Source of the DNA: Psilocybe cubensis
Lineage: Eukaryota
Assembly (NCBI GenBank): GCA_017499595.2
Contig: CM039005.1
Coordinates: 372,001 to 436,000, forward strand
DNA length: 64,000 nucleotides
Reading direction: 5' to 3'
Each line of letters opens with the position of its first letter. Position 1 is the first letter of the stretch. The translations under genes were made by a program, and so were the position numbers. The notes under the pieces are model-generated. The model did no database searches, was not told the origin of the DNA, and saw nothing but the letters and a program-made list of their open reading frames with translations. Below are positions 1 through 49,191 of this stretch, one piece after another.

Positions 1-1055
1 CGATGGGTCATTTTCTAGATATTGAGGGTCTTTTATACGCGATTCTGGAGGTACGGCATTTTCCACCCCACCTAGCCAAATCCTTTTGGTTGCTCCAACG
101 CCCTTTTGCAATTTCCGTCAATTCTAATGGAAGAGGAGCGCATAGACGTGAGCATGACAGGTTTCATAACTTCATAAACGATTAGGCCTGCCTGTCCGAA
201 TTTCTTATACAAAATCACAATATTTGGAGCTATGGATGTTGGACCTAGATGTCCTACCTCCGAAACGAGTGTCTTTCCAAGGAAGTTCTAGATGAAGACC
301 ACCTGAAATAGACATATTGGTTAGACATATTCCCACTGACTGGTGCTTTCTAAGCATTTCCAGTCAGGGTTGTAACATTCACCGATACGCCTTTGGACCA
401 AGATGCATACCAGTATCATACTGGCAATTTGTCAATGAAAAACACTGAACCTTCCACTCTATGTTTACGATGTAAAGCTATAAGATTAAGTGTGAATGCG
501 GTTATTAGGTACCTGACATGCAGTCAACATCTACAACTAGTATGAATTGAAGACCACAGAAAAAGATTCCAAGCCCAGATACTCTTCAGATGAAATAGAA
601 TAGCTTTTGTACCCCAAATACAAGGATGCTCTTCACTTTCTCGGTCTTTTCATGTGGAAAATGCTATACGGTTCTAGACTGGCTCATTCTAGCTATGCGA
701 CCTCTTTCGGGAAGTCTTCATGCATGCCAAAAGCCGACGGATATAGCCGCTCGCATAAAATTGCAAGAGCCGCCCGGTGGAAACGTTGGCGCAGTCTGGT
801 TCTACCTATAGATCGCGAGCGCTAATATGTAGGCATGCAAAGTTGAAGTACTCTTGCCATCATTTCTGGTCGAAGCTGAAGAGCTTGCTACATTGAGAAT
901 TTATAGACTTTTGATTATACATGTATATTACACAACAGTCTGATATGTTACAACTATGCTACGTCTTGTATATCTTAAGGATAAGAAATTGAGATATTGG
1001 ATCCCCAGTTTCATAACAAGGTCACTCACGCCTCATTGGAATTGGATCACGAAGA

Positions 1056-1487
1056 TTAGCATACCGCGCCTTCAGGAAGACTGAAACATCTGAGTGGGGC
1101 CAACGGGGTGTAAGCAAATTATCCACTAAATGGAGGTCGTGGCACTTACTTGGGATATGGCACTGCTCGACAACATTTCAAGTTGTGTCTACCTGACAAC
1201 CATACAATATTTAGCACAAGACCACTGCTACTGAGAAACGTTTGTTACAATCCTGCAAAACGAAACATTGTGCGTAAATATCAATTGAAGAACATGGCGT
1301 ATAAATTGACATACAGAATCACTGGCGCCTGGATAAAGGAGCATTATAAATGCGACTGTCAGCCACAACGCCTTTAAACCTAGAAAAAAAACGAACATTG
1401 GGCTCCAGGTCCACCACCTGGAATAGCTAGGACAGCCGAGGTGGAAAACAGCAAGACTAACGCTGTGAAAGTAATGAATTTGAACAT
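1056..1487 (-). CDS. Small secreted cysteine-rich peptide (knottin/ICK-like C-C-CC-C-C), 5 exons, 61-64 aa
   Basis: Hand-spliced exons 1487-1397, 1328-1315, 1252-1240 (or 1252-1249), 1192-1150, 1089-1056. All introns are GT..AG, 47-68 bp and phase-compatible. Product: MFKFITFTALVLLFSTSAVLAIPGGGPGAQCASDSDC(NKR)RHNLKCCRAVPYPKCFSLPEGAVC*. Hydrophobic signal peptide; TATAAAA upstream. Confidence 0.8.
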
Positions 1488-1556: not shown

Positions 1557-1563
1557 TTTTATA
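1557..1563 (-). promoter_or_regulatory. TATA box of the secreted peptide gene
   Basis: TATAAAA on the minus strand, 70 bp upstream of the ATG at 1487. Confidence 0.55.
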
Positions 1564-2334: not shown

Positions 2335-2426
2335 CACGTCGGGATATTCAGAATATGAAGTTCCCACGAAGTGGGTAATCGAATGTTACAAAATATTTGA
2401 AATATAATAAGGTTTTAAATGATGCA
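2335..2426 (+). repeat. Left terminal inverted repeat (92 bp)
   Basis: CACGTCGGGATATTCAG...TTTTAAATGATGCA is the exact reverse complement of 8162-8253. Confidence 0.95.
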
Positions 2427-2928
2427 GCTTTAGCTGGTGAAGAGAGATTAAGAGTGTGATTCTCTCGCATTAGGTGAGAATAAGCAAAGGAGTGTATGTA
2501 AAGAATGTATGTAGCTAGCAACCTGATGTCAATGATATCAGGGTTTGGGTGGGGAGCACCACCAAATCTGTGAGAGTCTGAGGTCCATGGTGGTCAGCGG
2601 CTAGACAGGGAAAAACAGAACAAATGGGAGACCAACGTGGAAATGCCGTGCGTAACGCTAAGACTCGCTGATTTTGGATGGTGCAACCAACTCGAAATGC
2701 GAGGGAATACTCCATGAGGCTGTGGAAGAGTCCAAAGTGAGCAAGGACCCCCAAAAGACCAGAGTAGGAGGGAAAGCAATGCCCGACGACGCGTCGAGCG
2801 AAATGGAGGACTCCCACACATCAGGAGGCGGGCAATACACGGGGAAAGGAAAAAACGCGACAGAGGAAGAAAACGTAGCAGGAATAGACACTCACGAGAA
2901 ACACAAGTTCACGGGTTGGAACGTCAGT

Positions 2929-5900
2929 TCATCCCCGAACGGGCGGGATGTTGAGTGTAATGCGATTGAACTCCGCAAAACATGCGGAATTCTGAATATA
3001 GGGTGCCAGGACCTTGGCGTGCTGGCGGAGATAGTTGGCAAAGGCGTCACTAGACCAACGACCCAGTGCCTTCACCACCTCAAAGGGGACCCCGCGGAGC
3101 AAATACTCCAACACCGCGCCAATACGCAAGCCATGTCCGTGCAGCGGTTCAAGACCTGCCGCTGCTGCCGCCTTCTTGATGCGATCCAAAAAGGCTGTTC
3201 TTGTGAGCGGCCGCCGTTTACCAGATGCCGCGTGTGTGTAAGAGAAAAGAGACTCATTGCTGAGAGGGGAGTTGATAAGAAAGTGGTTGGCGAGAGCGGC
3301 TTCGGGATCAGATGGGCCATCTTGACGGGCCCAATACACCTCCTCGCCATCCGTGGGTGCACACTTTGTGCGGGGGATGAAGAAAACGGTTGTAGCATTG
3401 CCGGCGCGGTCGGTTACATAAGAAATGTTGGACTTCTTCACATGAGCATCAGGGTCAAAGGAAGCGAGGTTGCGAACTGTGAATTCGCCCAGGCGTGCGG
3501 CCGACCAGAAAGTTGACGTCAGACAAGCAAAAACGGCGGCGTCGAGTGGGACAGCAAGGTCAAGATGAGTCCGTATCGAGCTGATAATAGAAGGAGTGAA
3601 AGGTGCCCGCTTGGGGCGACGAGAGGAACGAGGTGCAAGCTTCATGCCAGCGGCAAGGGCGGCATCCACTTCAAGCTTGTTGTACACAAGCTGATGCCCA
3701 TGAAGTGTATGCCATGCACGAATGCCATAGAACATGTTAGAAACCTGCGCACCAGAGTACAGACCCGCGCACGAGGAGAGAAAGGCAAGGAGAAGGATGT
3801 TGGTTAATGGGCAGCGCTGTTCCTCGGGAACTTCACGAAGATCACACCAGACATGAAAAACAAGAAGCGCACTGCCATATGCGCTACTCGTTCCATCAGC
3901 ATATCGAGCACCCAGGACAGTAAGAACGCGGTCTAGATCATGTTCTGACAGAGGAACAGCATGACCTGCAGCGTCGAAGGCGGTCCGCGACGTTGCTGGG
4001 ACCCATTTGAGCAAGCGCTCCGCAGCTACACAGTGTGGGCAAAGTGGGGATGGAGCTGGTACCAGATCTGCACGGTATGGACGGGCGCGACGTCGAGAGG
4101 AAGGAGACTTCGTGGGCAAAGCAGGTCTCAAAGGGGAAAGGAGAAGCGCACGCGAGCGACGGGGTGTGATGGGGTTACCCAGCACGGCTGTCCCAGTGCG
4201 GGCGATAGAGCTCAAGTTCGTCAACGAAGAGCCGCGCGTTAGTCGGCTCTCGCGATGGGCGATCAGCTGCTGGAACTCTGTGTTTGAGGGTTTGGCTAGA
4301 AAACGCGGCGGATCTGGTGGTGGTTGCAGCGGGGCTGTCAAAACTGACAATGAGGTCGTGGAGACACGAGGGCAAGGTACATGGTGGGAGAAGAAGCGAC
4401 TGCGACGGATAGATGCCCCGTGAGGGGCCGTCGGCTGGATTGTCATCGGAGGGGACGTATGCTGTAAAGATGGACTCATCGCGGTTGTTGCTGGAGAGAA
4501 ACGCGAGTATGCGTTTGAAGACCGTGTTGACGGCTGGATTTCTGCTCCGCCGGTTCCACCAACCTTCAACAACGCCCATGTTGTCTCCGTAGATTCGGAG
4601 GCGAGGGGTGTCTGGTGCAATGGCACAGAGTGTGTAGACAAGAAGCTCGAAGCCGACAGCTTCAGCCCATCCAATATCCCGTTTGCCATTAAGGGTCTGC
4701 CATCCGGGAAGAAGGCACCATGCACGCCAGCGGTTTCCAATGATGATTGCGATGCCAAACCCAGAGCTGGCGTCAGAGAAGGCTCTGACATCAGTGACCG
4801 CAACCGGGACTGGGATGGGACGCGCGAGGATGGGTTGAGATAATTTTCCCTTCCACCACTCGAGGTCGGCAGCAAGTGATTTGGGTGCGTGGCGAAGAGC
4901 GAGAGGACGCAAACTGGTGGCAAATCCACGGAGCATTGCTTCAAATCCAGTGAGATACGCGCGTCCAGCGGGAACCACACAGGTACAGTGGAGAAGCTTC
5001 CCATACAGTTTTTGGACGTCTTCGAGAGAATGTTGAGACGCAGACAACCACGCCGCAATAGCATCCAGGTATTTTGACTTCTTGCTGCCTTCAATGCACA
5101 CTGTGCGAGTTTCAAGGCACCACCCATAACCTGTGAAAGTGGCATAAGATGAGAAAGGTATGTCTTTAGCAGCCTCCCATGGTGTCCCGGTCTCTGAAGA
5201 AATAGAATCGATATCTGCAAAGCAATAAGAAAAACGGCTATCCTCCAGGGACCTGGAGGAAACCTGAGAGAGGTCCTGCAAAGGAAAACGGCAATCATCA
5301 TCAGATTCCTCAACCGTGCCATCCACCAACAAGCCTCCAGTATAAAACACCCGACCACCCGAAAACTGAGGGCCCGACTCAGCAAACCGAACCGCAGCGC
5401 GGGTACGCTGTGCATTGTACTGTAAAAGAAACTTGCGAAGAATGCGAATGAAAAGATGATCATCAACCCACTTGGTGATGGGGCCAATGCCACGAGAGCG
5501 AAACACATCCACTGTGGCATCTTGAATGAGGCCAAACACACCGCCGGATGGTGATGCCCCAAACGCGCCTCGGGTGTCAACGCAAAACTGGTCATCTCCA
5601 ATGCGGACAGCAGCAGCAGGCCACTGCGAAGGATGCAGAGGTACGGTGCGGAAGGCCTCAGATACATCCCGCACGGCAAGCTGTGATCCAGGTGGAAGAC
5701 GGCCCAGAAGCAGAGATACAACCGAAAAGGAACCCCAGGTGCAAGGAAAATTGGAAGCACAGGTATATGAATTGATAGAAGGGTTGGGAAACGAGGAGGA
5801 AGGTGAGGAGGGAAAGGAGAAATTCTGAATGATGCGGAATTTTCCTGGGCGGCCTGGCTTTGGAATGATCGAGAAAGGAGAAGTTTGGAAAGGGCCGATG

Positions 5901-6354
5901 AGAGATTCAAGATCGGCCCTCGTGAAAGGACCAATATAACGACCTTTCTCGAGCTCGAGTGCAATAATGTCATTGAACTCTTGTTGGAATTGCTTGACAG
6001 ATGGGCGATTAGGTGGGGATTGAGTAATGGAAATAGAAGGAAAATCAAAAATGAAACCGTGTTGAAACCCGTATACAAGAAAAGGGTATTTTTGGTGAAG
6101 GCCAGACTCGTCAAGTAAGCGCTTCCAAGTGGCAGCTGGGTAGAGACACTTAATTTGAGTGCGCCTGAGCTCGAGAGCATTTCTGGGCGCCATGGGTGAA
6201 TGAACCACACCCTGAACAGCGGTGTCTGTCTCCATGGCTGGACTGTGTGCACCCTTGTGTGGTCTGCCAATCGAAGCAGAGGGTCTGGCGCGAAGATTTG
6301 ACGACGAGTGTTCTGCCCTCGCGGTCTGCGAAGGACGGGTGACTTCCATCCCAA
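2929..6354 (-). CDS. Tyrosine recombinase ORF of the retroelement (YR domain in ~2929-3950; true start unknown)
   Basis: Catalytic motifs FWSAARLGEF (R), RTKC (K), GHGLRIG (H-x-x-R), LGRWSSDAFANYLR (W, Y). The frame stays open across most of the RT ORF. Confidence 0.9.
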   Translation of the reverse strand: MGWKSPVLRRPRGQNTRRQIFAPDPLLRLADHTRVHTVQPWRQTPLFRVWFIHPWRPEMLSSSGALKLSVSTQLPLGSAYLTSLAFTKNTLFLYTGFNTVSFLIFLLFPLLNPHLIAHLSSNSNKSSMTLLHSSSRKVVILVLSRGPILNLSSALSKLLLSRSFQSQAAQENSASFRISPFPPHLPPRFPTLLSIHIPVLPIFLAPGVPFRLYLCFWAVFHLDHSLPCGMYLRPSAPYLCILRSGLLLLSALEMTSFALTPEARLGHHHPAVCLASFKMPQWMCFALVALAPSPSGLMIIFSFAFFASFFYSTMHSVPALRFGLLSRALSFRVVGCFILEACWWMARLRNLMMIAVFLCRTSLRFPPGPWRIAVFLIALQISILFLQRPGHHGRLLKTYLSHLMPLSQVMGGALKLAQCALKAARSQNTWMLLRRGCLRLNILSKTSKNCMGSFSTVPVWFPLDARISLDLKQCSVDLPPVCVLSLFATHPNHLLPTSSGGRENYLNPSSRVPSQSRLRSLMSEPSLTPALGLASQSSLETAGVHGAFFPDGRPLMANGILDGLKLSASSFLSTHSVPLHQTPLASESTETTWALLKVGGTGGAEIQPSTRSSNAYSRFSPATTAMSPSLQHTSPPMTIQPTAPHGASIRRSRFFSHHVPCPRVSTTSLSVLTAPLQPPPDPPRFLAKPSNTEFQQLIAHRESRLTRGSSLTNLSSIARTGTAVLGNPITPRRSRALLLSPLRPALPTKSPSSRRRARPYRADLVPAPSPLCPHCVAAERLLKWVPATSRTAFDAAGHAVPLSEHDLDRVLTVLGARYADGTSSAYGSALLVFHVWCDLREVPEEQRCPLTNILLLAFLSSCAGLYSGAQVSNMFYGIRAWHTLHGHQLVYNKLEVDAALAAGMKLAPRSSRRPKRAPFTPSIISSIRTHLDLAVPLDAAVFACLTSTFWSAARLGEFTVRNLASFDPDAHVKKSNISYVTDRAGNATTVFFIPRTKCAPTDGEEVYWARQDGPSDPEAALANHFLINSPLSNESLFSYTHAASGKRRPLTRTAFLDRIKKAAAAAGLEPLHGHGLRIGAVLEYLLRGVPFEVVKALGRWSSDAFANYLRQHAKVLAPYIQNSACFAEFNRITLNIPPVRG

Positions 6355-6601
6355 ATGCGCGGGAGGCGACAGGATCGAAAGTCGTGGGAACGGCGGCCCA
6401 AACAGACAGCGCAGGCGGGCTCCGATGCTGCGCCGCTCCGAAAACCCTGAGGCTGCTTGTTGTTCTCACGGGGTTGGCGGTAGGGAGAAGGAGATCGACG
6501 ACGTTTGGAGTCACGATGATTGCGAGGAGGGCTGTCAGAGCGCATATGGGACTGAGTGGAACGTCCCAACCGATGGGTGTCTGCTCTGTCGTGAGACCCA
6601 C
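4175..6601 (-). CDS. Reverse transcriptase / RNase H ORF of the retroelement
   Basis: SPFSIIPKPGRPGKFRIIQNFS, RDVSEAFR, FGASPSG, WVDD (~5460-5471); RNase H motifs FSDASSGFG, WAEAVG, YGDNMGVV, DNPADGPSRG. Confidence 0.93.
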   Translation of the reverse strand: MGLTTEQTPIGWDVPLSPICALTALLAIIVTPNVVDLLLPTANPVRTTSSLRVFGAAQHRSPPALSVWAAVPTTFDPVASRAFGMEVTRPSQTARAEHSSSNLRARPSASIGRPHKGAHSPAMETDTAVQGVVHSPMAPRNALELRRTQIKCLYPAATWKRLLDESGLHQKYPFLVYGFQHGFIFDFPSISITQSPPNRPSVKQFQQEFNDIIALELEKGRYIGPFTRADLESLIGPFQTSPFSIIPKPGRPGKFRIIQNFSFPSSPSSSFPNPSINSYTCASNFPCTWGSFSVVSLLLGRLPPGSQLAVRDVSEAFRTVPLHPSQWPAAAVRIGDDQFCVDTRGAFGASPSGGVFGLIQDATVDVFRSRGIGPITKWVDDHLFIRILRKFLLQYNAQRTRAAVRFAESGPQFSGGRVFYTGGLLVDGTVEESDDDCRFPLQDLSQVSSRSLEDSRFSYCFADIDSISSETGTPWEAAKDIPFSSYATFTGYGWCLETRTVCIEGSKKSKYLDAIAAWLSASQHSLEDVQKLYGKLLHCTCVVPAGRAYLTGFEAMLRGFATSLRPLALRHAPKSLAADLEWWKGKLSQPILARPIPVPVAVTDVRAFSDASSGFGIAIIIGNRWRAWCLLPGWQTLNGKRDIGWAEAVGFELLVYTLCAIAPDTPRLRIYGDNMGVVEGWWNRRSRNPAVNTVFKRILAFLSSNNRDESIFTAYVPSDDNPADGPSRGIYPSQSLLLPPCTLPSCLHDLIVSFDSPAATTTRSAAFSSQTLKHRVPAADRPSREPTNARLFVDELELYRPHWDSRAG

Positions 6602-7774
6602 CCCATTTTGCTAGTGCGTCGGACTGGACAGCGAGTAAAGCATAAACAGCAAAGTATAAGGCATAAAGCGGAAAGCAGGGTGCATGGTTGGAGAGAGTAA
6701 GGGTCGAGAAAATAAAGCAGCGGTGATAAAGCGGCGGGGGGTAAAGCAAAGAACGGCAAGCAACGAGCGTAAAGCAAACGGCGTGTAAAGCAATATGTGT
6801 GATGCACGGGGGAGCAGAATGAAAATAACAGCGGGTTAGTTTGATACACTACTGAGAAAGAGAGGAGCACGCACCCTCGCTAGTTCGTGTTGTGCATCTC
6901 TGGCATCGCGGTCGTCGTCTATAACCTTGGCTTTGATTTTCCTGTACAGCTCGTCGCTGAAGCCCGCCAGATCCCAGCCTCCTTCACCGGATGCAATGGA
7001 GATATGCCAATCCTTGCGAATACTCTCCTGGTAGGTAAAAAGCGCGAGGCGATTGAGGCGACCAGGGTCAAAACGCGACGAGTGGTTCTCGATGCCTTCG
7101 AAAAAACCAATGAACATGAGAACACGTTCGGCTGGCCAGCCGGCGCGGCGAATCGCAGTAATAAATCTGGCAGTGGCAACATGAAATTCCTCCCACGTCA
7201 AGTCTTTATCCGGGACGATGCTGCGTGAGTCTTTAGTTACAAGAGAAGGAACAAACGAGGCAACCCCAGATTTCCAAACAATGGACATGGATTCGTCGGA
7301 CGTGGCGGCATGGGCGCTAGCACGGGCGTCTGCAACGCCGGCATTTGTGAAGTACCAAAGTTCGACGTACTTGGCAGCGTCTAGACGGCGAAGGGCGGCG
7401 GGGTTGATGACGACAGGGAGGTCAACCGGGATTGGGCGATCAAGAACAGGGCAAAACTTTGCTCGGTTCTTTTTCACTTCCTCCAAATGGGCAGCCTCTG
7501 CATCTTGTTTGAGAAGCTGTGCGGCCTGGTCAGCCGCTTCCTTATCGAGGCGCGCGCGTTCCTCGGCCCTGGCAACCTCGTCTTCGCGCTGTGCTTGCCA
7601 CGCGGTTTTTTGAACCTCGTTCATGGCGTGCCATATAGCAGTCAGCGCCGCTACGGCTTGTTCGTCGGTGGCGCCCGGGACGGCAGTTTTGTGGGCGTCG
7701 CGAACGGCTTGAAACGCAGGGAGCGTGTAATCCGGAGGGACAGCGTCCGTAGGATCGTCTACAATGCGTGCCAT
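6150..7774 (-). CDS. Gag-like ORF1, two exons (7774-6875, 6623-6150), C-terminal Cys/His zinc fingers
   Basis: ATG at 7774 (MARIVDDP); YVELWYFT motif; phase-0 intron GTGCGT..TCCAG joins HELAR to SDALAKW; CAVCLGRRSH...C and CSGCGSFTHGAQKC zinc knuckles. Confidence 0.75.
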
Positions 7775-8161
7775 GGCGGGAAATTTTTTCTGAGAGGCCG
7801 ATTTACTGAGTTCTGACGAACAGAGACTGAAAGGAAATTTTCTTGGACGATCTAAGGGTGGATGCGTCCAAAAATTGTTGCTTCGTCTGTGTGGTGAGAG
7901 GGAAAGCGGTGTCGCTCTCACCCGCTGACTCAGCACATAGTAGCCGTTCAGCGATCGTAGCATTTCATTACACTTCACACTGAACATAATTGATATAAAA
8001 TATCTTGGTCTCAAAGAGGATGATTCAGATTTAATATACAAGTCATTCTTGAAATGTACTTTATGTATAAAATTTATCACAACATTCTTTAAAGATTTGG
8101 ATGTTGCCATGTAATTACAATCTTAGTTAACATATGTATTTCTTTTGTATTTAAAGCATGT

Positions 8162-8253
8162 TGCATCATTTAAAACCTTATTATATTTCAAATATTTTGT
8201 AACATTCGATTACCCACTTCGTGGGAACTTCATATTCTGAATATCCCGACGTG
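8162..8253 (-). repeat. Right terminal inverted repeat (92 bp)
   Basis: Exact reverse complement of 2335-2426. Confidence 0.95.
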
Positions 8254-23574: not shown

Positions 23575-25259
23575 TTACCACCATGTATGGCCAGCCCCCT
23601 CGGAAAGAAAATTCGCAACGACAATGGACCCTTCGTCCAGTAGTGATGCATAGCATAATCGTCCAGAAATTGGATCAAATGTGAACTCGCCGTATTGTAG
23701 AAGGTTGTCACCCGTGTTTTCCAAGCTGACGACTGGATCATAATACGAATAGATCCGGTCTGCTGCTTTGGTTATGCTGTCACCAGAAACAGAAAGCTGT
23801 ATTGTGTCGAAATTACTGAAACATTTGAATATTTGGCCTTGTAATATTCGCCAGCTGTCCCACCCTATAGAGAAATCTCCGTAGTTAAGATCTTGGATTA
23901 AAGTCGTTGCCCATTCTTCAATGCTTTCATAGTTTTCTCTGCCGTCAACCGAAGAAGCGTTTATTTTGTAAGACACGGTGAAATACTCTGAGCTACTCCC
24001 AGATTCAATGATGTCGAATAGAAACGGTGCAACCGAGTGACCATTATACCAGGAGTTTGCAGACCTATAAACCGACATCTGATTTCGTGAGAGATGGTAA
24101 CTTGGGTTGGACGGCTGATTAATGGGTAGTATGAAGTCGGGCGAGAAATCAAATGGTGTCGCTTTCTCCAACCCAAGCCATGATCGACTACCAGGAATAG
24201 GAAATTTCCAGCCACGAATCCAATTGAAGCTAACCAATATGACTCTGCAGCAGTCAATAAAAGCCTAATTAACGACGTCTTACTTTGAGAATGATTATTA
24301 CGGTTGAAAGTGACTGTACTCACAGTTAAAACAGCTTCTAACCCGTGCTTCCAGGATAACCATATATCTCGGACGATATCCCACATATAGATACAATTGT
24401 CGTCTATTTCGACGAAGATATCTCCGCTCATTAGTCGAAGCATGATATTGCCTGGATATCGTGGAGCACTGGCTCTGTAGATATGGGTCGTTGGCGGTGT
24501 TGAAGCGAGTTGACATTCGAAAACATGATATTGAGGTACGCCCCTTAGTTCGGTTCAATATTGTCGACATCGAAAGTTCGGTATTATGAAACACGTACAA
24601 CAGGTCATCAGAGATTGAGATAGCCAGTGCCCCGATTCGAATGGCAGTCCCCGTAGGATCCTGAGAGCACACAATGGGTGTTTGTAAGCGATATTTCCAC
24701 TCAACCAGAGGTTCAGCCACTTTTGAGTGTTTGTTTGTGACAGCGTCCAAATCCCACACGCACAAATTTCTCCAGTACCCTGAGTAGCTTACGAGGAAGC
24801 GGCCACCAGGGATGAGGAAAAGGAATCTGGTAAAGTTTCCAGCTATATCTAAAACACCTGGAATGGTTAATCGCTTAGAGGTAGCCGGTAGAATACGGTC
24901 GCCTGAGCAGAGATGTTTGTTGTAAAGAGAAATGATTTTATCTGGACTAAAAACAACGCGTTGAATTTCTATTACGGATAGTTGGGGGATATTGTAGGTC
25001 GGTTTGAAGAGAGCGTTGGACGCGCATATCTTGTTAAGTAAGGGAATCCAAACCGAGCGGTGCGCAGAGGCTTCTCGTAAAGAACGGCATGTCTGTCGAC
25101 TGTCAGCTTTCTCTTTATATTATTGAAGCTGGTAATAGAGAAACCCACCATACCAAGTTTTACCACTTCTAAAGGATCCAAGAGTTGTATCACATTCAAA
25201 AGTATATCGAAATGGATATTTTGAAACGATATATAGGTTTGCTGAGAGCTTCCAACCAT
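23575..25259 (-). CDS. F-box-like protein, PGGR/FDPxSGR family, paralogue 1
   Basis: N-terminal IHFDILLNVIQLLDPLEVVKLGM|TCRSL; FLIPGGRFLVSY; CVWDL; C-terminal FDPISGRLCY. Confidence 0.75.
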
Positions 25260-25668
25260 TCGTCGCCAAAAATTTGATGTAGGTCAGCGTAGGTCATTCC
25301 ACTGTTGTTGCCAATGAATGTTCAATGTTGACGGTGTAAAGCAATTGGGATATTGAACAGGTCCTGAGATGTGGAATTAAAAGGTATAAGGCCTCTGGGT
25401 TGGCAATAAGACTTTGAATCAATCTTAAGTGAAGGAAATGCCAATTTGCCAAGGGCAACACCAAAACATTGTGCAAACATGGCGTCAATTTGATCCTATT
25501 GGCTATGTCTTGGGAGACAAACATTGCAATCATCGGCACATGACATGATGCTGACATATGTCATGTCGAAACATATGTCGACGCCCATTACGTCTACACA
25601 CCTTGTTTCTACCTCAATCAATCAACAACATCGAAACGCCATTCGATTGTATTATTCTTTGAACCAAC

Positions 25669-26626
25669 ATGGCCTGGCGCTGCTCTGGTAGAACTAATTC
25701 TCAACTCATCTCTAACATGAAATCGAATGGCATAATTCATTCCGACCGAATTATGAAGGTAAAACCAAAATACTGATAGTGTCCTCCAAGAGGCACATTG
25801 AATGAGTGTCATACAGGCAATGAATTCCGTCGACAGAGGCAATTATGTACCTAGGAAATCGGAAGCATACGAGGATTCTCCACAGTTCCGTTCCTTGACA
25901 GTCATCTTATTAAACCTGCGTTTGAAACATTGCATCTAACAGGCTTATTGGGCATGGGGCGACGATAAGCGCACCGCACATGGCAAGCATGATTATGGCG
26001 TTATTTCTCTGTATAATGGAGCTCACAATTTGGTAGCACGCGTATGCAACGGAACATTTATTGCCATATCTTCATCCAGGAGCGAAAGTACTCGATATCG
26101 GAAGTGGGTCTGGTTACCTTGTGTCAGTCCTTCACGAACTTGTCAGTCCGGGTGGGAAGGTTGTTGGCATAGATCATATCCCTGAACTGGTTGACTCTTC
26201 TATTCACAATCTCAAAAAAGATGGGCGAGGAGAATCCATCGAAAACGGAGAGATCATAATGATTGCAGGAGATGGGAGGCTTGGATATCCTTCTGCAGGT
26301 GTGTTTTTGGTCGGCGTTTACTGTAATGTTGTTTAACATATTTTATAAGGGCCATATGATGCAATTCACGTCGGAGCTGCAGCATCTAAAGTTCCACAGG
26401 AATTGATAGACCAACTCGCAAAACCCGGACGGATGTTCATTCCTGTAGGCGACTACTCCCAATACATAGAGCATATCGATAAAGATGAGCATGGGAATGT
26501 AACACGCTCTCAAGTAATGGCTGTTCGGGTAAGTTGGTTCTCTGCCAAAGTTTATTATCTAACGTACAATTGCAGTATGTTCCCCTCACTGATAAAGCCC
26601 TGCAAACTGGTGGCCCTATGAATTGA
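25669..26626 (+). CDS. PCMT1: Protein-L-isoaspartate(D-aspartate) O-methyltransferase
   Basis: MAWRCSGRTNSQLI; ATISAPHM; SAM motif VLDIGSGSGY; GDGRLGYP; PYDAIHVGAAA; LAKPGRMFIPVG; YVPLTD. Confidence 0.93.
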
Positions 26627-27328
26627 AATGAACGTTGTATCAAATCATAATCGCTACCTGTATATTACACATCATCAAAACAAATTCATGTCAATTTCCT
26701 TACTATCTTTCCTACTGAAATACTCAGAAAATTTCTTTAAGCCAAGTTTTCTTAAATTCAAGATTGGAATGTAGAGGTTTTGGAGATTGGACTAGCATGT
26801 GGTTGTAATGTGGTTGTCGCAACATCTAGATGAGATTAAGGTAGATGAAGGTACACAACTTGGCGCTGGAATGGTATGGGCAACCAGGTTCAGAACATGA
26901 AGCCTACCAAACCGCTGTCCAATTCCAAGATCAGTATTCCATTATGAATGATAAAACCGAACCAGTCGGTCCAAGGATTTTCAGCAAATCTTCTAGCATG
27001 CCTCAAACTAGCCTGCAATTCATAATATGGATTGATGTGATCTACCCGTTAGAAGGGCATTATACACCAGCTGATTGTGACTCAACTAACTTTAAGTAAA
27101 GTTCAAATGGTATTCGATGCTACTTCGGCACCGATTTTTTTCAAGTCCAAGTGCCTACTTGAGTCGCCGCTTCAATGACTTAAAGTATATCAACCTTCCA
27201 GGCAGTTGCCATTCCCACATCCCAAATACACACCACAACCATACTTGAGTCCACTCACACATATTAAACACGTCTCGGGTCGAATAGTCTTCGCTTTATA
27301 CTGCTCTCTGTTCCGTGTCCTAGAAGTC

Positions 27329-29362
27329 ATGGCGCTCACTTTCAATAACCCTTTGGATGTACTTGGACCAACAACGTCGATGTACCGGCTTCAAAGCACA
27401 CCGCCTGATGTGGTTCTTGAAATAATGTATCAATGTAGGGTGAAAGATATATTCTCTCTCCGAAAGGTAAGCCTCGAACGTATTTTTTCATGTATAAATG
27501 TGCCCATAAATTTTGAAGACTTGCGTGAAACTTTGGGAGATTTCTCAAGAAAGAAACCTATGGATAAAAGCTCTCTACGACACTTGCTGCCGTAATGAGA
27601 TACCGAGATCCAGTTTTGCAGTTTCACAGATGTCACTTTCTGAACTTGAAAAAGCCGCCTTTGCACCAACCAGGATACTCCAGCACCTCTGGAACCATCA
27701 AAACACTTCAAATGGATTGGAGCTCCAACCATACTACACCAGGAGAATCTCTGGAAATGAAGACGGATATAAGTTCCGATCTGTTTTCATTGTGCCAGGT
27801 GGACGATTCTGTGTCACGGTCGTTTCGACTGCGATACATATATGGGATCTTTCCTCGTCATCCATGAGCGAAAAACCGCAGAGAGTCAAAACTTGGTACA
27901 TCGAAGAATCTGACCTTCTTACCGTTTCTTTAAATCCCGATTCAGATGGAATAAGGATTGCAGTAGAAAATGAGGGTGCTAATACCGCTCGGTAAGCATG
28001 AGTCCGACCCTAGCATCTTTCAACGCTAAAAATGGGTACAAAGCCATATATCTGTTTTTGAATATCACCCATCGTCTGGCCGTTCAAATGAATGGATTTG
28101 GAATCATTTTCATGAAACTGAGAACGTGGTTGTCGACTTGATCACAATGTCTTGCAACTATCTCCTTATAGCAACAAGCGCCCATGTTTGTGTCTGGGAC
28201 TTCGTCAACGATAAAGAAGCAATGTGGACGTATGATCGCCTGGGAATTAAATCCAGAACTCTTTCAAACGTGAGTTTTTTCTTTACTTCTAAATATATTG
28301 CTTTGTTTGACAATCATTCAGGTTATGCTGGACACAGAAGAAAATGTTGTTATTCTCTTCACTTTTAACCGAGTCATTTGCTGGAAAATCTTACCACTCG
28401 GAATGAAAGAGGCGGGTATTTCTTCTGTCTGCCATCACGACAAAATGGAACTCGTCTTTGATATCAATTTCGAGAAACCCCGATTCCCTGGCAGAACACC
28501 GTTAGCAACGGACTTCAAACGAGTTGCCGACTGGTACAAAATAACACCATCGTCCAGAATCTTTGACATTCGGCTCAATTTCAGGTCTAGAAGTGACACA
28601 AGAAAGTGGATTTGGACAGGCTACCAAGTAGTTGATACACCGGTACCTGGTCCTCAATCGGAGACGAATAGTTCTGGAACCCATACCAACCTGCAGTCGA
28701 TATATAAAGTCGTTAGACTTGAGCATTGGTCAACTCATACCGAATCTCAGGGTGTTCTTAGCTCAATTGAACATATCGATGACGATGACGACTCGGATGG
28801 CGATGACAATGACAATGAGGGTGAAGGTGACTCGGTACATCAATATGGAAGTTATGTGGACGTTACACGATTCGGCCTTGAAGGCGACGAAGAAAGATAC
28901 AACTCAGGTGATGATGGCAATCGCCCTACAATCTTGGATGGTGGGGAGGAATATGACGACGCGATTGAGAACGACGATGAAGTGCAGCCCGACACTGAAA
29001 ATGACGATAGATACTACAGCAGCGGCAGTGAGGACTTCTTCTTTGAGTTCGGAGAAGGAAGTAACGAATATCGAAAATGCGACGACTACTTAGTGAAATT
29101 TTGCTACTCAAGGACTCACCTCAAGATACGAACCATGCGACTACCTACCACATCCGATCCCTCGGTTTCGAGAGAGAAAAAACTTGATTCTTGGGTATCA
29201 ATTAGACTCACCCCCTTTTCGGAATGCCAGAGTATCTGGGCGGGCCAGTGCAATTGGTTGGCGGGATCGGATTCCATCTCCTTCGACCCAGTTTCTGGAC
29301 GATTAGCCTTTGTGGATTCAAAGGACAACGTACTCCACATTTGGGATTTCTTACCTGCGTAA
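27329..29362 (+). CDS. F-box-like protein, PGGR/FDPxSGR family, paralogue 2 (with acidic insertion)
   Basis: PPDVVLEIMYQCRVKDIFSLRK|TCVKLWEI; FIVPGGRFCV; IWDL; SFDPVSGRLAFVD; D/E-rich tract ~28777-29060. Confidence 0.78.
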
Positions 29363-37322: not shown

Positions 37323-39120
37323 ATGTCTATGATGCCGCAACGGAAAGAGCTAACCAGTCTGCCAATGGATCTCCTTGTTCTTATCCTCGAATTCCTTGAT
37401 CCTTATGATATACTTGAAGCGAGAAAGGTGCGAGTGCATGTTCAACCTGCTGAACAGGCCAATCTGATTTGACCCACTATTGCGAACAGACCTGCAAATT
37501 GTTGCACGGTGTGACAACGCAGCGTATAGTTTGGATTAACGCTCTTCGTCGAACATGCTACCGAAATTCCATCTACGAAGGCACATTTCCGCTATCCAGA
37601 ATGTCTCTATCAGACCTCGAACATGCAGCCACGGTTCCTAGTAAATGGGCGTCTCTCTCATCGAAACCGCGTAAAAGCGAGGAACCCCTATCCAGCGCCA
37701 CCACTCGCCGTCTCCACTGCCCACGGAGCTTAACATACGATATCGATGAAGAACTCGGTGAATTTACCAGCTTCTGTTTGGTCCCTGGGGGTAGATATCT
37801 TGTAACGTTCGCTCGGAATTGGGTGGCAGTTTGGGATTTGGGATTGAAGCCCGGACCTGACACAATCACGGATTTCCAGCCCCTTGGGGTGTCGGCGGTA
37901 CATTTCACGGGGATGTTCCTCGTTCACCCCACAATCGATGGAAAGGGACTTCATATTTTTGTCTCTGCCGCTGAGCAAACGATGTTTAAGCAGGATTGCT
38001 ATGAATCGTGAGTATCAGTTATGGCGCCTCTGTGCGTCAAATCTTTCTGATGATGACTGATGAAGACATAATTAGCTCTGTTCTTCTGATATACGAGATA
38101 TATCCTCAAAACGTCAACCCGAAATTGGAACTCATTGCCCGCCTGAATCATGTTAACACCGACGAAATCAATTTTTTTTCGCTTTCTAGAAATCGCCTCA
38201 TATTCATGGAAGGGTCCATTCTGAAAATTTGGCATTACACAAAAAACTCTTGGGCACATTGGACGGTTGAGAAAGATTATTACCAGGTACCATCTAATAT
38301 AACTTGGCACACATACATTATTCACAACTCACCAACTAGATTATCGTTGGTGAATCAACAGTAACTCTGCTGTCCCCGACTGGGGTCTCTGTGTGGCCTA
38401 TTCCTGCTCTCTCCTCGTCATCTCCACCGTTCTTAAACCAACCGCCTCAGGCGATATCCCCCCTTGTCACCCTTCCCTATCCAAACCCACGTCCCTCAAA
38501 CACCGACTGGTGCGAGGGACCCTGCGACTGGTATTCGGGAACCACTCAACCTTTTCTCTACGATCTTGTAAACTGGGATAGTGATTCTGAAACCATAACA
38601 ATGCGCCGATACGAGGTCTCATTGGCGCAGGACCTCAAATCCTCCGAGCTGATCGAACGACAGGCGTTCACTTTCCATGGCCCAGACGAGCCTGATATTC
38701 TGTTCCAACCTTCGGCGTTTAACGATAATTCCCTCGTCACGATCTTTTTTGACTTCACGTGCGATTCTATCAAGCTGCATACTGGTTCTTTCTCTGGTCC
38801 GTCTTCTCCTAACAAAGACGGTAAATTGCCCGACCCGGAGGCATCCGAGACTATTACCCTCGTCAAGGGGGAGCATATCACAAAGGGCTATGCGATGGCG
38901 TTCTGTCCAATTTCTGCACGTTTTTTATACCTGGACAGCGAGAAGAATATCTGCATTATCGATTACATTTCTCAGCCTGCGTCGGAGGTAAGTCTTCATC
39001 CTCGACTTATATCCCCTCGGGACTTATGTACTGTGGCAGGTCTCTTGGCTTGATATTCAAAGAGGCAGCCGCGACTATCTTGTCGATGATGCGGTTCTGG
39101 AACTTGTTGAGACTTGTTGA
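37323..39120 (+). CDS. F-box-like protein, PGGR/FDPxSGR family, paralogue 3
   Basis: LTSLPMDLLVLILEFLDPYDILEARK|TCKLL; FCLVPGGRYLVTF; VWDL; AFCPISARFLYLD; last exon 39040-39120 (stop at 39053 if unspliced). Confidence 0.8.
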
Positions 39121-45489: not shown

Positions 45490-48400
45490 TTACATTGGTT
45501 TGTAGAGGGAATTTATCCGCCTAAATAAGTAATCTCCAGCCACCGCCAAGCTATACCAAGCATCTGACTTGCGATATGCATATGCTCTCCTACCCGCACT
45601 AAGTGTCGGCTCCAACATTGTATATGTTTTCCACTTTTTACTCTGATGTATAAAAAATGCAACCATCCATTGCATTTCGTATCGTACCAGTGTCGCCTCT
45701 TCTAGCCACCTGTGATATAACACTCGTGCCCTCAACCAATGTACTCTTTTAACTGTATAGTCGGGTAGTCGGGTCGGAAATTTATAAGCGCCCGTAATAT
45801 ATCATTAAAATAACTCACATTCAAGCACAGTGGCGGGATCTGCTTCCTCTGATAATGTGTTTGGGTCGGCATCGGGAGTAGCTGTCGGATCAAGTGCCCA
45901 CCGCGGTCCGAATCTTTGGTGTACAGAATACCAAATCCATGACAAACGGAATTTGGTTGATCCCGGCAAATTTGGATTAAGAATTGCAGTACTTGATTTA
46001 ATGTCTTCTTTTGTTAAAATGCGCAACTCCTGAAGAATTTCATCATTGGCCCCCAACTTGACAATACGAGTTCGGCAGTGTGAGTATGCCTGCGCATGCA
46101 TTGAAATTTGGTCTTTTAACTCTTTTACCGCCGTTTGACCTCGTGTGCGTACCCCTTTGCGTGGACCCTTTTGGACAACTTCTTTGAACTGGAAAGACCG
46201 CTCTGCTATTAGTTCTCGGATCTGGTTAAGGTGACTTCTAGCTTTTGATATTCTGGCTTCAAGTTCATCTGATGCATAAATTTTGCTTGCAGCACCATTT
46301 GATGGTAAGCATATTGGCTGTAGATCAATATCCTCGTTTACTGTCGGACCCAACCCAGGAGCTAGAACATCTTCTTCGTCTTCCCAGTCAATTAAAATCT
46401 GGTCGGATATGTCAATGTCTTGTCTCCCGGTAGCAACAACACCTGCTTTGGCCTGAAGTTTATTGAGTTGAACCATCAATGTTTTGAGGGAGTCTCGTAG
46501 CTTTTGAAGCTTGACGCGGTCGGTAAGACGATCATGATTGACAAGCCGACGTGCACACATCCGTATGTCCAATCTAAAATATTAAAACTTGCATTAGAAT
46601 AGTTTCACTTAAGATAACTATACATACTGTTTCTCTTCAATCACTAAAGCAAACTGGATCCATGATTGTACTGGAGTCAGTGGTGTAGAAGGACAGGCAC
46701 AGTCACTGGTATTGACTGTCGGAGCGGATCCAGGCCACTTAGCAGTATAAATGTCCATTAGCTTTGGGTCTTGCAATCGATTTTTTTCTACATGTTCAAT
46801 CTGCTGTGTCCATAATTTGATGGCTTCAGGATCAGCAGAGTTGGTAAGATTGGAAAAACATATCCGATATTTGTCTCTTGTTTCTTCAGCTTCTAGATAC
46901 CGTTGGCAAAGATACTTGGTTATTCCAAGAGCCTTTTTGTGGTTGGAATCACATGCATGATCATCAAGTATTTCTGCTTGATGAGCTAATGTTGCCGTTT
47001 GAGCTGCAGGGGATATAGCATTCAAGTCGGCCCACAATGATTCAAGAATCTCTCCGCAGACACAGGAGGCACCAGGAATAAATGTCGGAGCATATCGGAA
47101 AAAGCACTCATCCTTGTGAGCATGGACATGGAACATACCAATTGCTCTGTCAATTTTGAGTCCATTGGGGAGATGGTCCTTAATTCGCTTGAGTAGCCAG
47201 ATGATATACTGGCAGACAATATCATATATAACCATGGTGCCTTGGTCAGGATGGACACCAGTTGATGCAAGTGCAGCTAAAAATGCAAAGTCTACATTTT
47301 TCTGCTGCTCACCTTTAAAAAGATCAACTAGTGCATTTGGAGCATAGCACCCATGTCGGGCACATGCAATGCCGACAATTCCTGTAACATTGCAAGATGA
47401 CTTGGACAATAATGAATTTTGAATTGCATGAAATGTATTCTTGCATGGAGCACCCTAGTATTAGTTAGTTATACTGATTGTCACAGTAAAAAAATGGTTA
47501 AACAGACCGTCAATGCCTCAATAGCAGATTTAAGAAATGCATGGTACTCTGCGCGGTCAGGTATCATGCCACTACCTTCTGAAAGCCAGACATCTCAAGA
47601 TGGCTTTTCTGAGCGAATATGATCAGCCTTGAAGTTTCCATCAGCTACAAATATCCGTTTGTAAACCCAACGATTTGGGTCTTCTCTCCAATTGTCGGGT
47701 AAATTAACTCCAGGTTGTGGGCATGCGGGACAAAAAATTCCAAGTTCTCCTTTTCCAACAGACAGCGCAGCCCTCCCATTATGCCCTGCAAACCCCGACC
47801 ATTTGAGTTTTTTCATCCACCTCCATAGTCGCGACATTCTTCGGAACTCATTGTATAGGTCCACAACACTTGAAGGAAACATTGGATTTGTCACTTGTCG
47901 GATAAGAGAGTAGAACTGATATGCTGATGCCTTGAGTTCTAGGTTGGATAAACGGAAATAGTCTAGAAGCTGGGCGGAGAAAACTGTACGAATGCGGTGA
48001 AAACTTGTTGGCAATAATCGACTTGCAATGAGATCCAGAGGAAGATTGTTGGCTCCATGGCATACACAATAAACCATGGCTAGGTGGTGGACACCATTAG
48101 TATGAATTGCCCGAATATAGGCATTGTTGAGTCCGTCAGTCTTTGGAGTCCCTGTCGGAATGCCTTTGTTTGCCGACTGTGGTCGGAGATATTGAGGCAT
48201 GTCCCGTACATCTGCCTCTGCTTTGCTTACTTCTTCTTCATTGTCACAGTCTTGAATATTGTCTAATGAATGAGGATCTTCTCGGCACCTGTTTAGGTAT
48301 GCCTCAAACTCCTCATCTGTAGGGCCATTTGGATCCAAATTCTCTGGGTCTTCCTCAAGATTTTCCATCTGAATATCAATACTGTTTGTGTATTCTGTCG

Positions 48401-49191
48401 ACTGCTCGATGGGCGCTTGTTTCCATTTCAATTGTTGTAGTTGATTTTGTTCCTCCTCGTCCTTGGTTTCTTCAATATTTTCAAGATAATTAATCTGGAA
48501 GTTCAATGAAGAACATATAGAATCTCCTGTATGATGGGGTATAAGGATATAGGTACCAGTCTCCCATAGCTGAGCCGGCTGGAAGTGTGTGCCTGTCCAA
48601 CATTCCACTTTGTGCAAAGGATTGACGCGGTGAGTATGCCGCATACACTTTCTGCAAATAAGGGATGGTAAGCTACAATCCTTGCACCGCCATACCGCAA
48701 TCAAATTGCTATCACAACTAGAGCAAATAGGAGGTTCAGAATCCTCAGAAATATTGGGTGCTTCTTGGCTCAGTAATGCCCCTAGTAAATCATCCACACG
48801 CAAAACAAATTCGTTAATATAGTCTCGTTGTGTCTATCCACATTATGCTGGTGAGATTACTTTGTAAAATAATAAAATATGTTCATACCTTCCGAATTTT
48901 TGGGACTACATTTTCATCATGGTGAGTTGAAGGTAGACTGTTTTCATCCTGACTAAATCCAGCATCCTTGTTGAATGTACCATGCTCCTGTTCTTCTAAA
49001 CCTATTGGCTTCTTCTTATGAGGTCGATTTGTGGTACTCAAAGAAACCTTCACTAGCTCTGAAACCACCTTTCCTGCTCGCGTGGTTCTGGTTTGATTCT
49101 TGTATGTAACAGCATCTGCTGCATTAGCATCATCTTTGTATAGTGCCTTCTTCCTGGATTTCCTGTTACTTGATGTTCGTTGAGATGGCAT
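45490..49191 (-). pseudogene. CxC2 + KDZ transposase with in-frame TGA at 47595-47597
   Basis: CRKCMRHTHRVNPLHKVECWTG; HTNGVHHLAMVYCVC; CPACPQPGVNLP; ADGNFK; ACARHGCY; YDIVCQY; FHVHAHKDEC; GEILESLW; RARVLYHRWLEEATLVRYEMQW. The reading SEKPS*DVWLSEG continues in frame. Confidence 0.9.

Follow-up and report, generated by a model that had tools for sequence, protein, structure and literature searches.

We identified a transcribed gene of six exons, five of them coding, on the minus strand of the analysed window, a 64,000-nucleotide stretch of Psilocybe cubensis DNA (G000:C8:372001-436000, equal to CM039005.1, from an assembly of 46.6 Mb in 21 contigs). This gene, referred to as gene A, belongs to a family of conserved, expressed, fungal secreted three-disulfide mini-proteins which apparently has no annotation, and we have hardly any doubt that both the gene and the family are real. 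The conserved secreted family is dropped by prediction pipelines, with a core of 31 residues spread over five exons, and the core is short enough to be synthesised, which makes its fold and activity directly testable.

Structure and transcription of gene A

The TATA box of gene A (TATAAA, starting at 1563 and covering 1558-1563, minus strand) lies 76 nt before the ATG. Exon 1 (91 nt, 1397-1487) encodes the predicted signal peptide, a Gly-rich linker, and the first base of the Cys1 codon, and is followed by two micro-exons, exon 2 of 14 nt (1315-1328) and exon 3 of 4 nt (1249-1252), the latter providing an Asp codon and the first base of Cys2. Exon 4 (43 nt, 1150-1192) carries Cys3-Cys4 and a loop of basic, small, Val, Pro, and aromatic residues, whereas the 34-nt coding part of exon 5 (1056-1089) carries Cys5, a Pro-x-Gly turn, Cys6, and the stop codon. 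All of these exons are on the minus strand, and in the minus-strand sequence the introns between them are all GT..AG, with lengths of 68, 62, 56 (or 47), and 60 nt. The first-pass annotation had placed the five in-phase exons, their GT-AG introns, and the upstream TATA box at the same coordinates. Beyond the stop codon, a further GT..AG intron of 56 nt (974-1029, minus strand), which the first-pass annotation lacks, starts after 26 nt of 3' UTR, followed by the non-coding exon 6, which covers at least 855-973 on the same strand.

Public sequencing runs were compared over positions 700-2400, namely X1 and X3, which are DNA-sized, and X4 and X5, which are putative RNA. The transcript evidence is one 348-nt contig from one run, X5, whose RNA label is presumed, none of the listed runs that contain the locus being recorded as RNA. 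Its pieces correspond to 855-971, 1030-1089, 1150-1192 (0 differences), and 1396-1490, and intron sequence is absent. Exons 5 and 4 are joined at 1089/1150, and the 17 letters that connect exon 4 to exon 1 at the joint 1192/1396 correspond to what remains of exon 2 plus the 4-nt exon at 1252-1249. The contig, therefore, removes all the predicted coding introns, crosses the junctions that had been proposed for a spliced transcript, and selects exons of 91/14/4/43/34 nt. It also skips the 3'-UTR intron, with a joint recorded as 971/1030, an offset which probably stems from a 2-nt deletion at 969 displayed by X1 and X3. The contigs of X1 and X3 retain every intron, indicating that in these runs the joined form does not come from the genome. 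Despite the single contig and its presumed RNA label, it is difficult to see how five GT-AG introns could be removed exactly other than by splicing.

Two donors had been proposed for exon 3, both said to keep the six cysteines. Indeed, translation gives an open frame with six cysteines for the 4-nt and for the 13-nt option, and we retained the former because it is used in the X5 contig, where the 13-nt form was not seen, and is also found in 6 of the 7 family genes. The 13-nt form may still occur as a minor isoform.

The resulting precursor has 61 residues, with cysteines at positions 31, 37, 43, 44, 52, and 61, which corresponds to a spacing of 5,5,0,7,8. Its N-terminus shows a Lys near the start and a hydrophobic core (KD11 of 2.63 in the hydropathy analysis), and we predict a signal peptide of about residues 1-21, the cleavage site being placed by eye. 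This signal peptide would direct the precursor into the ER, and a peptide some 40 residues long would form its three disulfides there before being secreted. The product has the attributes of the small secreted cysteine-rich proteins of fungi, i.e. a signal peptide, a short length, many cysteines, and no known domain, and it presumably acts much as other disulfide-rich peptides do. The proposal that a hidden micro-exon gene encodes a secreted peptide with six cysteines is thus borne out, by the X5 contig for splicing and by hydropathy for secretion.

A conserved family absent from protein collections

The family comprises seven genes from three sources: genes A, B, and C in this genome, a number which is a lower bound, gene D on the metagenome contig L050, and genes E, F, and G on the metagenome contig L051. 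Paralog B, found by an exon-1 search, is directly downstream of gene A on the minus strand (G000:C8:371520-371960, L003 1150-1590), with its coding exons just outside the window, its ATG at G000:C8:371960, and its TATA box at positions 32-37 of the window (minus strand). Paralog C, found by a motif search, lies on the same contig at a distance of about 975 kb, also on the minus strand (G000:C8:1347428-1347892, L029 1392-1856). The three paralogs have identical exons (91/14/4/43/34 nt) and cysteine positions, and have 27-38 of their 61 residues in common.

Contigs L050 and L051 are the two confirmed among 18 metagenome candidates. Neither locus has a DNA-level match to this genome, so that genes D-G, all predicted from DNA only, are probably from other species. 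Gene D has exons of 103/14/4/43/34 nt, and gene E, with 85/18/43/34 nt, has one intron fewer; genes F (spacing 5,5,0,10,6) and G (5,5,0,8,6) are more distant, the Cys4-Cys5 spacing of 8 in gene G being that of the preferred model, as an alternative donor gives 10. The three genes of L051 form a tandem array of 2.6 kb (163-588, 1293-1667, and 2319-2731), and in the middle one a single 18-nt exon replaces the 14- and 4-nt exons, which suggests intron gain or loss inside one array.

Intron phases are common to all seven intact genes, exon 2 is 14 nt long in six of them, and a TATA-like hexamer occurs 42-91 nt ahead of the ATG in all seven. Candidate 3'-UTR introns, recognised by their pattern only, are present at similar places in B, C, and D (26-44 nt after the stop across A-D); this intron, shown for gene A only, appears to be conserved in four genes of the family. 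The precursors of all seven genes have 59-65 residues, six cysteines, and a hydrophobic N-terminus, the signal peptide being judged by hydropathy only. Residues invariant in genes A-E comprise the six cysteines, a Gly three residues before Cys1, the Asp before Cys2, Val-Pro and a Lys in the Cys4-Cys5 loop, and a Gly three residues before Cys6, which is also found in F and G. We also observe that the five close homologs all conserve an aromatic residue at one position of the loop, that the net charge of A-E is 0 to +1, and that genes A-E have no dibasic processing site ahead of Cys1.

The distribution of changes points to purifying selection on the gene and on the family. In the interval 1056-1487, X1 differs by 7 substitutions and 3 indels, which are all intronic (10/10, binomial p 0.004, with an expectation based on 186 coding and 246 intronic bases). 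In X3, these ten changes recur together with a synonymous one (10/11 intronic, p 0.019), X1 and X3 being from one study, with most changes in common, and thus not independent. The four position-listed coding changes of X5, in exon 1, are all synonymous, with two further differences unclassified, including one in the piece with exon 5. Between paralogs A, B, and C, pS is 0.72-0.79, which is saturated, versus a pN of 0.23-0.38.

Several controls address the specificity of this gene architecture. The exact exon architecture gave no match in a chance control made up of 349,792 strand-bases from unrelated loci, and a relaxed architecture scan of 516,122 strand-bases (51 loci and the window) recovered the seven family genes and nothing else. 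The motif search gave 30 matches, of which 3 passed the architecture test and 27 were discarded for failing it. A second pattern search gave 7 matches, three being A, B, and C and the other four failing the relaxed scan; two of these four, L043 and L040, turned out on reading to be chance matches in other sequence. At the DNA level, a search of the own genome found gene A alone.

The full-length family protein was found in none of the protein collections searched, as expected from the first-pass annotation, which had considered the gene probably unannotated. A search of 1.84 billion protein representatives gave two matches, P0003, a wrongly called frame from a single Logan contig that ends in a further exon-1 homolog, and P0002, which was dropped because it matched intron text. 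Profile searches recovered one protein among 2622 candidates, P0003 itself, and none among 25 in another search. None of the proteins of 30-77 residues among 5.8 billion had three 5-residue words in common with the read-through of exons 1, 4, and 5, and the exon-1 scan of metagenomes was negative (0 of 598). Pfam and PDB sequences gave no match at an E value of 10, with a query which held intron text and lacked exons 2-3, and Rfam gave no match. A bacterial promoter scan was at chance level, the method being not applicable here.

We attribute the absence of the gene from databases to its micro-exons of 14 and 4 nt. Such tiny internal exons appear ordinary for mushrooms, since in Coprinopsis cinerea about 9% of the gene models are described as having an internal exon of ≤15 nt, which breaks annotations (PMC12230235, passage cited). 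Micro-exons being common in mushrooms, they are not the novel part of this finding. In the literature covered (listings and the beginnings of abstracts, with subscription journals outside this coverage), no description of the family was found. Fungal ICK peptides are reportedly the subject of Zhao et al. 2018, to judge by its title, and this work could cover relatives of the family.

The absence from protein collections is what would be expected if the gene were a decaying pseudogene, or if its splice path had arisen by chance; the putative RNA run X4 also gave no contig over the locus, to which we give no weight. This explanation is contradicted by the spliced X5 contig, by the intact state of seven genes that agree in their intron phases, by changes which avoid the coding exons or are silent in them, and by the lack of any control match, and we consider it extremely improbable.

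Fold of the six-cysteine core

The C-C-CC-C-C arrangement was initially read as an inhibitor cystine knot (ICK). Spacing by itself does not establish this reading. The spacing 5,5,0,7,8 lies within the broad knottin pattern, C-X2-7-C-X3-10-C-X0-7-C-X1-17-C-X4-19-C (PMC6889267, passage cited). The strict ICK consensus, CX3-7CX3-8CX0-7CX1-4CX4-13C, with a Cys4-Cys5 loop generally of ≤6 residues (PMC4942781, passage cited), is not followed, however, since this loop has 7 residues in A-E, 10 in F, and 8 in G. Moreover, conotoxins with the C-C-CC-C-C framework can fold as an unknotted mini-granulin (cited part of PMC11035057); this framework being common to both folds, it is not diagnostic of a knot.

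We favour a different arrangement, in which the 31-residue core would fold as an unknotted disulfide-directed beta-hairpin (DDH), with the half-granulin pairing Cys1-3, 2-5, 4-6, or, within the same fold, with the adjacent Cys3 and Cys4 swapped. The pairing I-III, II-V, IV-VI is the one given for a natural half-granulin in the same cited part (PMC11035057). Judging from sequence, we consider this hairpin, in either pairing, the probable fold, a true knot rather unlikely, and any other fold quite improbable.

Three features favour the hairpin. The first is the motif Cys2-x-x-Gly-x-x-Cys3, which is found in 5 of the 7 genes as in the DDH consensus, CX5-19CX2(G/P)X2CX6-19C (PMC10779620, passage cited); Cys1, 2, 3, and 5 conform to this consensus in the same proportion of genes, gene A having Asn instead of the Gly/Pro. 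The second is the long and variable Cys4-Cys5 loop, which is the hairpin site of DDH peptides and granulins, whereas the ICK loop is short there. The third is that granulin cysteines I, II, III, IV, V, and VII, onto which the six cysteines of the family map, form a fully paired set with nearly the family spacing, the granulin bonds being I-III, II-V, IV-VII, and VI-IX (PMC7463432, passage cited).

The comparison with granulins extends to their N-terminal spacing, C-X5/6-C-X5-CC-X7/8-C, which is observed in 6 of the 7 genes in the preferred models, the exception being F with 10. For the paragranulin or mini-granulin fold, the granulin N-halves in Table 1 of PMC7463432, in its cited part, have spacings of 5-6,5,0,7-8, compared to 5,5,0,7-10 for the first five cysteines of the family, and Gly is found three residues after Cys2 in 2 of 3 of these N-halves. 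Nevertheless, the family has six cysteines with a single Cys-Cys pair and contains neither the 12-cysteine motif of granulins (PF00396), X2-3CX5-6CX5CCX8CCX6CCX5CCX4CX5-6CX2 (PMC1310530, passage cited), nor a half-module ending in Cys-Cys. It also lacks an aromatic-Gly directly before Cys5, and its exon layout differs from that of granulins. The granulin profile was uninformative on the own genome, with no match there or for any of the 14 controls, and introns break such a match. According to the cited passage of PMC4527844, granulin modules are undetected in any fungus, and if the family were a granulin remnant, this reported loss would need revising. DDH peptides, for their part, are known from venom, whereas the family is fungal and would have a third disulfide.

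Four observations count against the hairpin: gene A lacks the Gly three residues after Cys2, the broad knottin pattern is followed, granulins are undetected in fungi, and the loops have 5-10 residues, instead of the 2-4 to which the mini-granulin fold is tied in conotoxins (cited part of PMC11035057). The corresponding alternative, a true ICK with knotted Cys1-4, 2-5, and 3-6 bonds acting as a defence peptide, gains from the preference of longer loops for ICK over mini-granulin in conotoxins (PMC11035057, same part), and from the Gly three residues before Cys6 in all seven genes, which suits a C-terminal hairpin turn. Fungal knottins also exist, such as MLP124266 of Melampsora larici-populina (PMC6889267, passage cited), and knottins resemble the family in being secreted with six cysteines in C-C-CC-C-C, but the family differs by a Cys4-Cys5 loop of 7-10 residues, beyond the 1-4 of the strict consensus. 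In one tick peptide whose Cys4-Cys5 loop is long, the cysteines are described as pairing as in an ICK but forming no knot (PMC4942781, passage cited).

The position of the loop signatures also argues against the knot. Those that we take to be typical of ICKs, Gly-x-x-Cys, Asp-x-Asp-Cys, and (x-x-)Gly-Leu-x-Cys, here occur one cysteine too early for a knot. Overall, a knotted defence peptide is possible, albeit doubtful. If the core is unknotted, as we favour, it would provide a natural fungal scaffold for the open question of what decides between ICK and mini-granulin (cited part of PMC11035057).

Possible function and genomic surroundings

Directly after the Cys-Cys pair, genes A-E (5/7) have Arg/Lys, then Ala/Ser, Val, and Pro, whereas in F and G, the distant homologs, Gly occupies the P1-like position. 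The hairpin would display this conserved stretch, and Arg/Lys as P1 could allow a substrate-like inhibition of trypsin-type proteases, serving in defence against grazers or competing microbes. We put protease inhibition first because the basic-small-Val-Pro stretch partly resembles the Bowman-Birk trypsin-inhibitor loop, CTP1SXPPXC, in which Lys or Arg at P1 leads to trypsin inhibition (PMC7760496, passage cited). With Bowman-Birk and amphibian BBI-like loops (PMC7760496, same passage), 5 of the 7 genes share Cys at P3, a basic residue at P1, a small one at P1', an aliphatic one at P2', and Pro at P3'. The full nine-residue loop is absent, as Cys replaces Thr at P2, only one gene in five has Ser at P1', the second Pro is replaced by an aromatic residue, one extra residue lengthens the loop, and the scaffold differs (PMC7760496, same passage). 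The likeness would, therefore, be convergence and not homology. Trypsin inhibitors, cospin among them, serve mushrooms as a defence against insects, and if trypsin-type proteases were inhibited here, the family would add a new class to the defence inhibitors of mushrooms. We only tentatively propose this mechanism as the leading one, and its combination with the unknotted hairpin is itself doubtful. As for the two roles suggested in the first-pass annotation, defence would be plausible, and nothing points to an effector role.

The surface residues conserved across distant organisms would suggest a conserved binding partner. Another explanation is that the peptides are developmental or signalling ligands, or components of the cell surface or matrix, whatever their fold. 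The selection, which is purifying rather than diversifying, the near-neutral charge, the Val-Pro, Lys, and Asp surface residues invariant across distant organisms, and a granulin-like spacing which recalls growth-factor modules are all consistent with such a role. A small tandem array whose members differ in their loops, such as the three genes within 2.6 kb on L051, is typical of genes for interaction or defence, which makes a ligand or matrix role harder to accept; we regard it as unlikely.

A defence peptide acting otherwise than on proteases, i.e. an antifungal, antibacterial, or insecticidal peptide with a protein or glycan target, such as a hevein-like chitin-binding peptide, would equally be small, secreted, multi-copy, and stabilised by three disulfides, and the aromatic residue retained in the close homologs also speaks for it. 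A cationic antimicrobial acting by membrane lysis is hard to reconcile with a net charge of only 0 to +1, and the family lacks the Ser-x-aromatic-Gly-aromatic motif and the 5-residue loop of hevein. We likewise regard this possibility as unlikely, and protease inhibition remains our first candidate.

A mobile element of 5.9 kb had been described some 770 bp upstream of the TATA box of the gene. Its extent (2335-8253) and its distance of 772 nt from the TATA box are correct, but it is a nested composite rather than a single element. It has perfect terminal inverted repeats of 92 nt, with AAA on both flanks, and the interior (about 2416-7994) is a tyrosine-recombinase retrotransposon (PF00589) which is 100% identical to C5:2555443-2561021. 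Several short elements elsewhere in the genome, about 1.3-1.5 kb in length, match the inverted ends. These two matches indicate that a retrotransposon is nested in a non-autonomous DNA element, and the complete identity to the C5 copy that its jump was recent. The terminal repeats of the retrotransposon and the middle of the host DNA element are missing at this site. The retrotransposon is presumably Ngaro-like, the C5 copy having extra repeats beside it.

The contigs of X1 and X3 span the gene, then diverge from the window at 2299, and do not carry the inverted end, so that the insertion appears to be polymorphic. With the element apparently absent in X1 and X3 and the gene intact there, the element is not needed for the existence of the gene, to which it is probably incidental.

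Directly beyond the mobile element is a cytochrome P450 gene (PF00067, 8725-10443, minus strand), and a trehalose-phosphate synthase is also among the neighbouring genes. Together with a nearby P-type ATPase and the short GT-AG introns, these neighbours are consistent with a fungal origin. Further into the window, multi-exon genes at 23575-29362 and 37454-39053 have similar N-terminal segments which look F-box-like by eye, the one piece checked having no Pfam match, and a Kyakuja-Dileera-Zisupton transposase with a CxC2 domain (PF18758, PF18803) is found at 45805-48833, in an element-like region that extends to about 55000. The neighbours of the family genes on L050 and L051 have no Pfam match. 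A P-type ATPase gene, by eye similar to plasma-membrane proton pumps (L004 5773-8884, G000:C8:367773-370884), converges on paralog B, and paralog C adjoins an ORF which by eye resembles an old-yellow-enzyme-type oxidoreductase.
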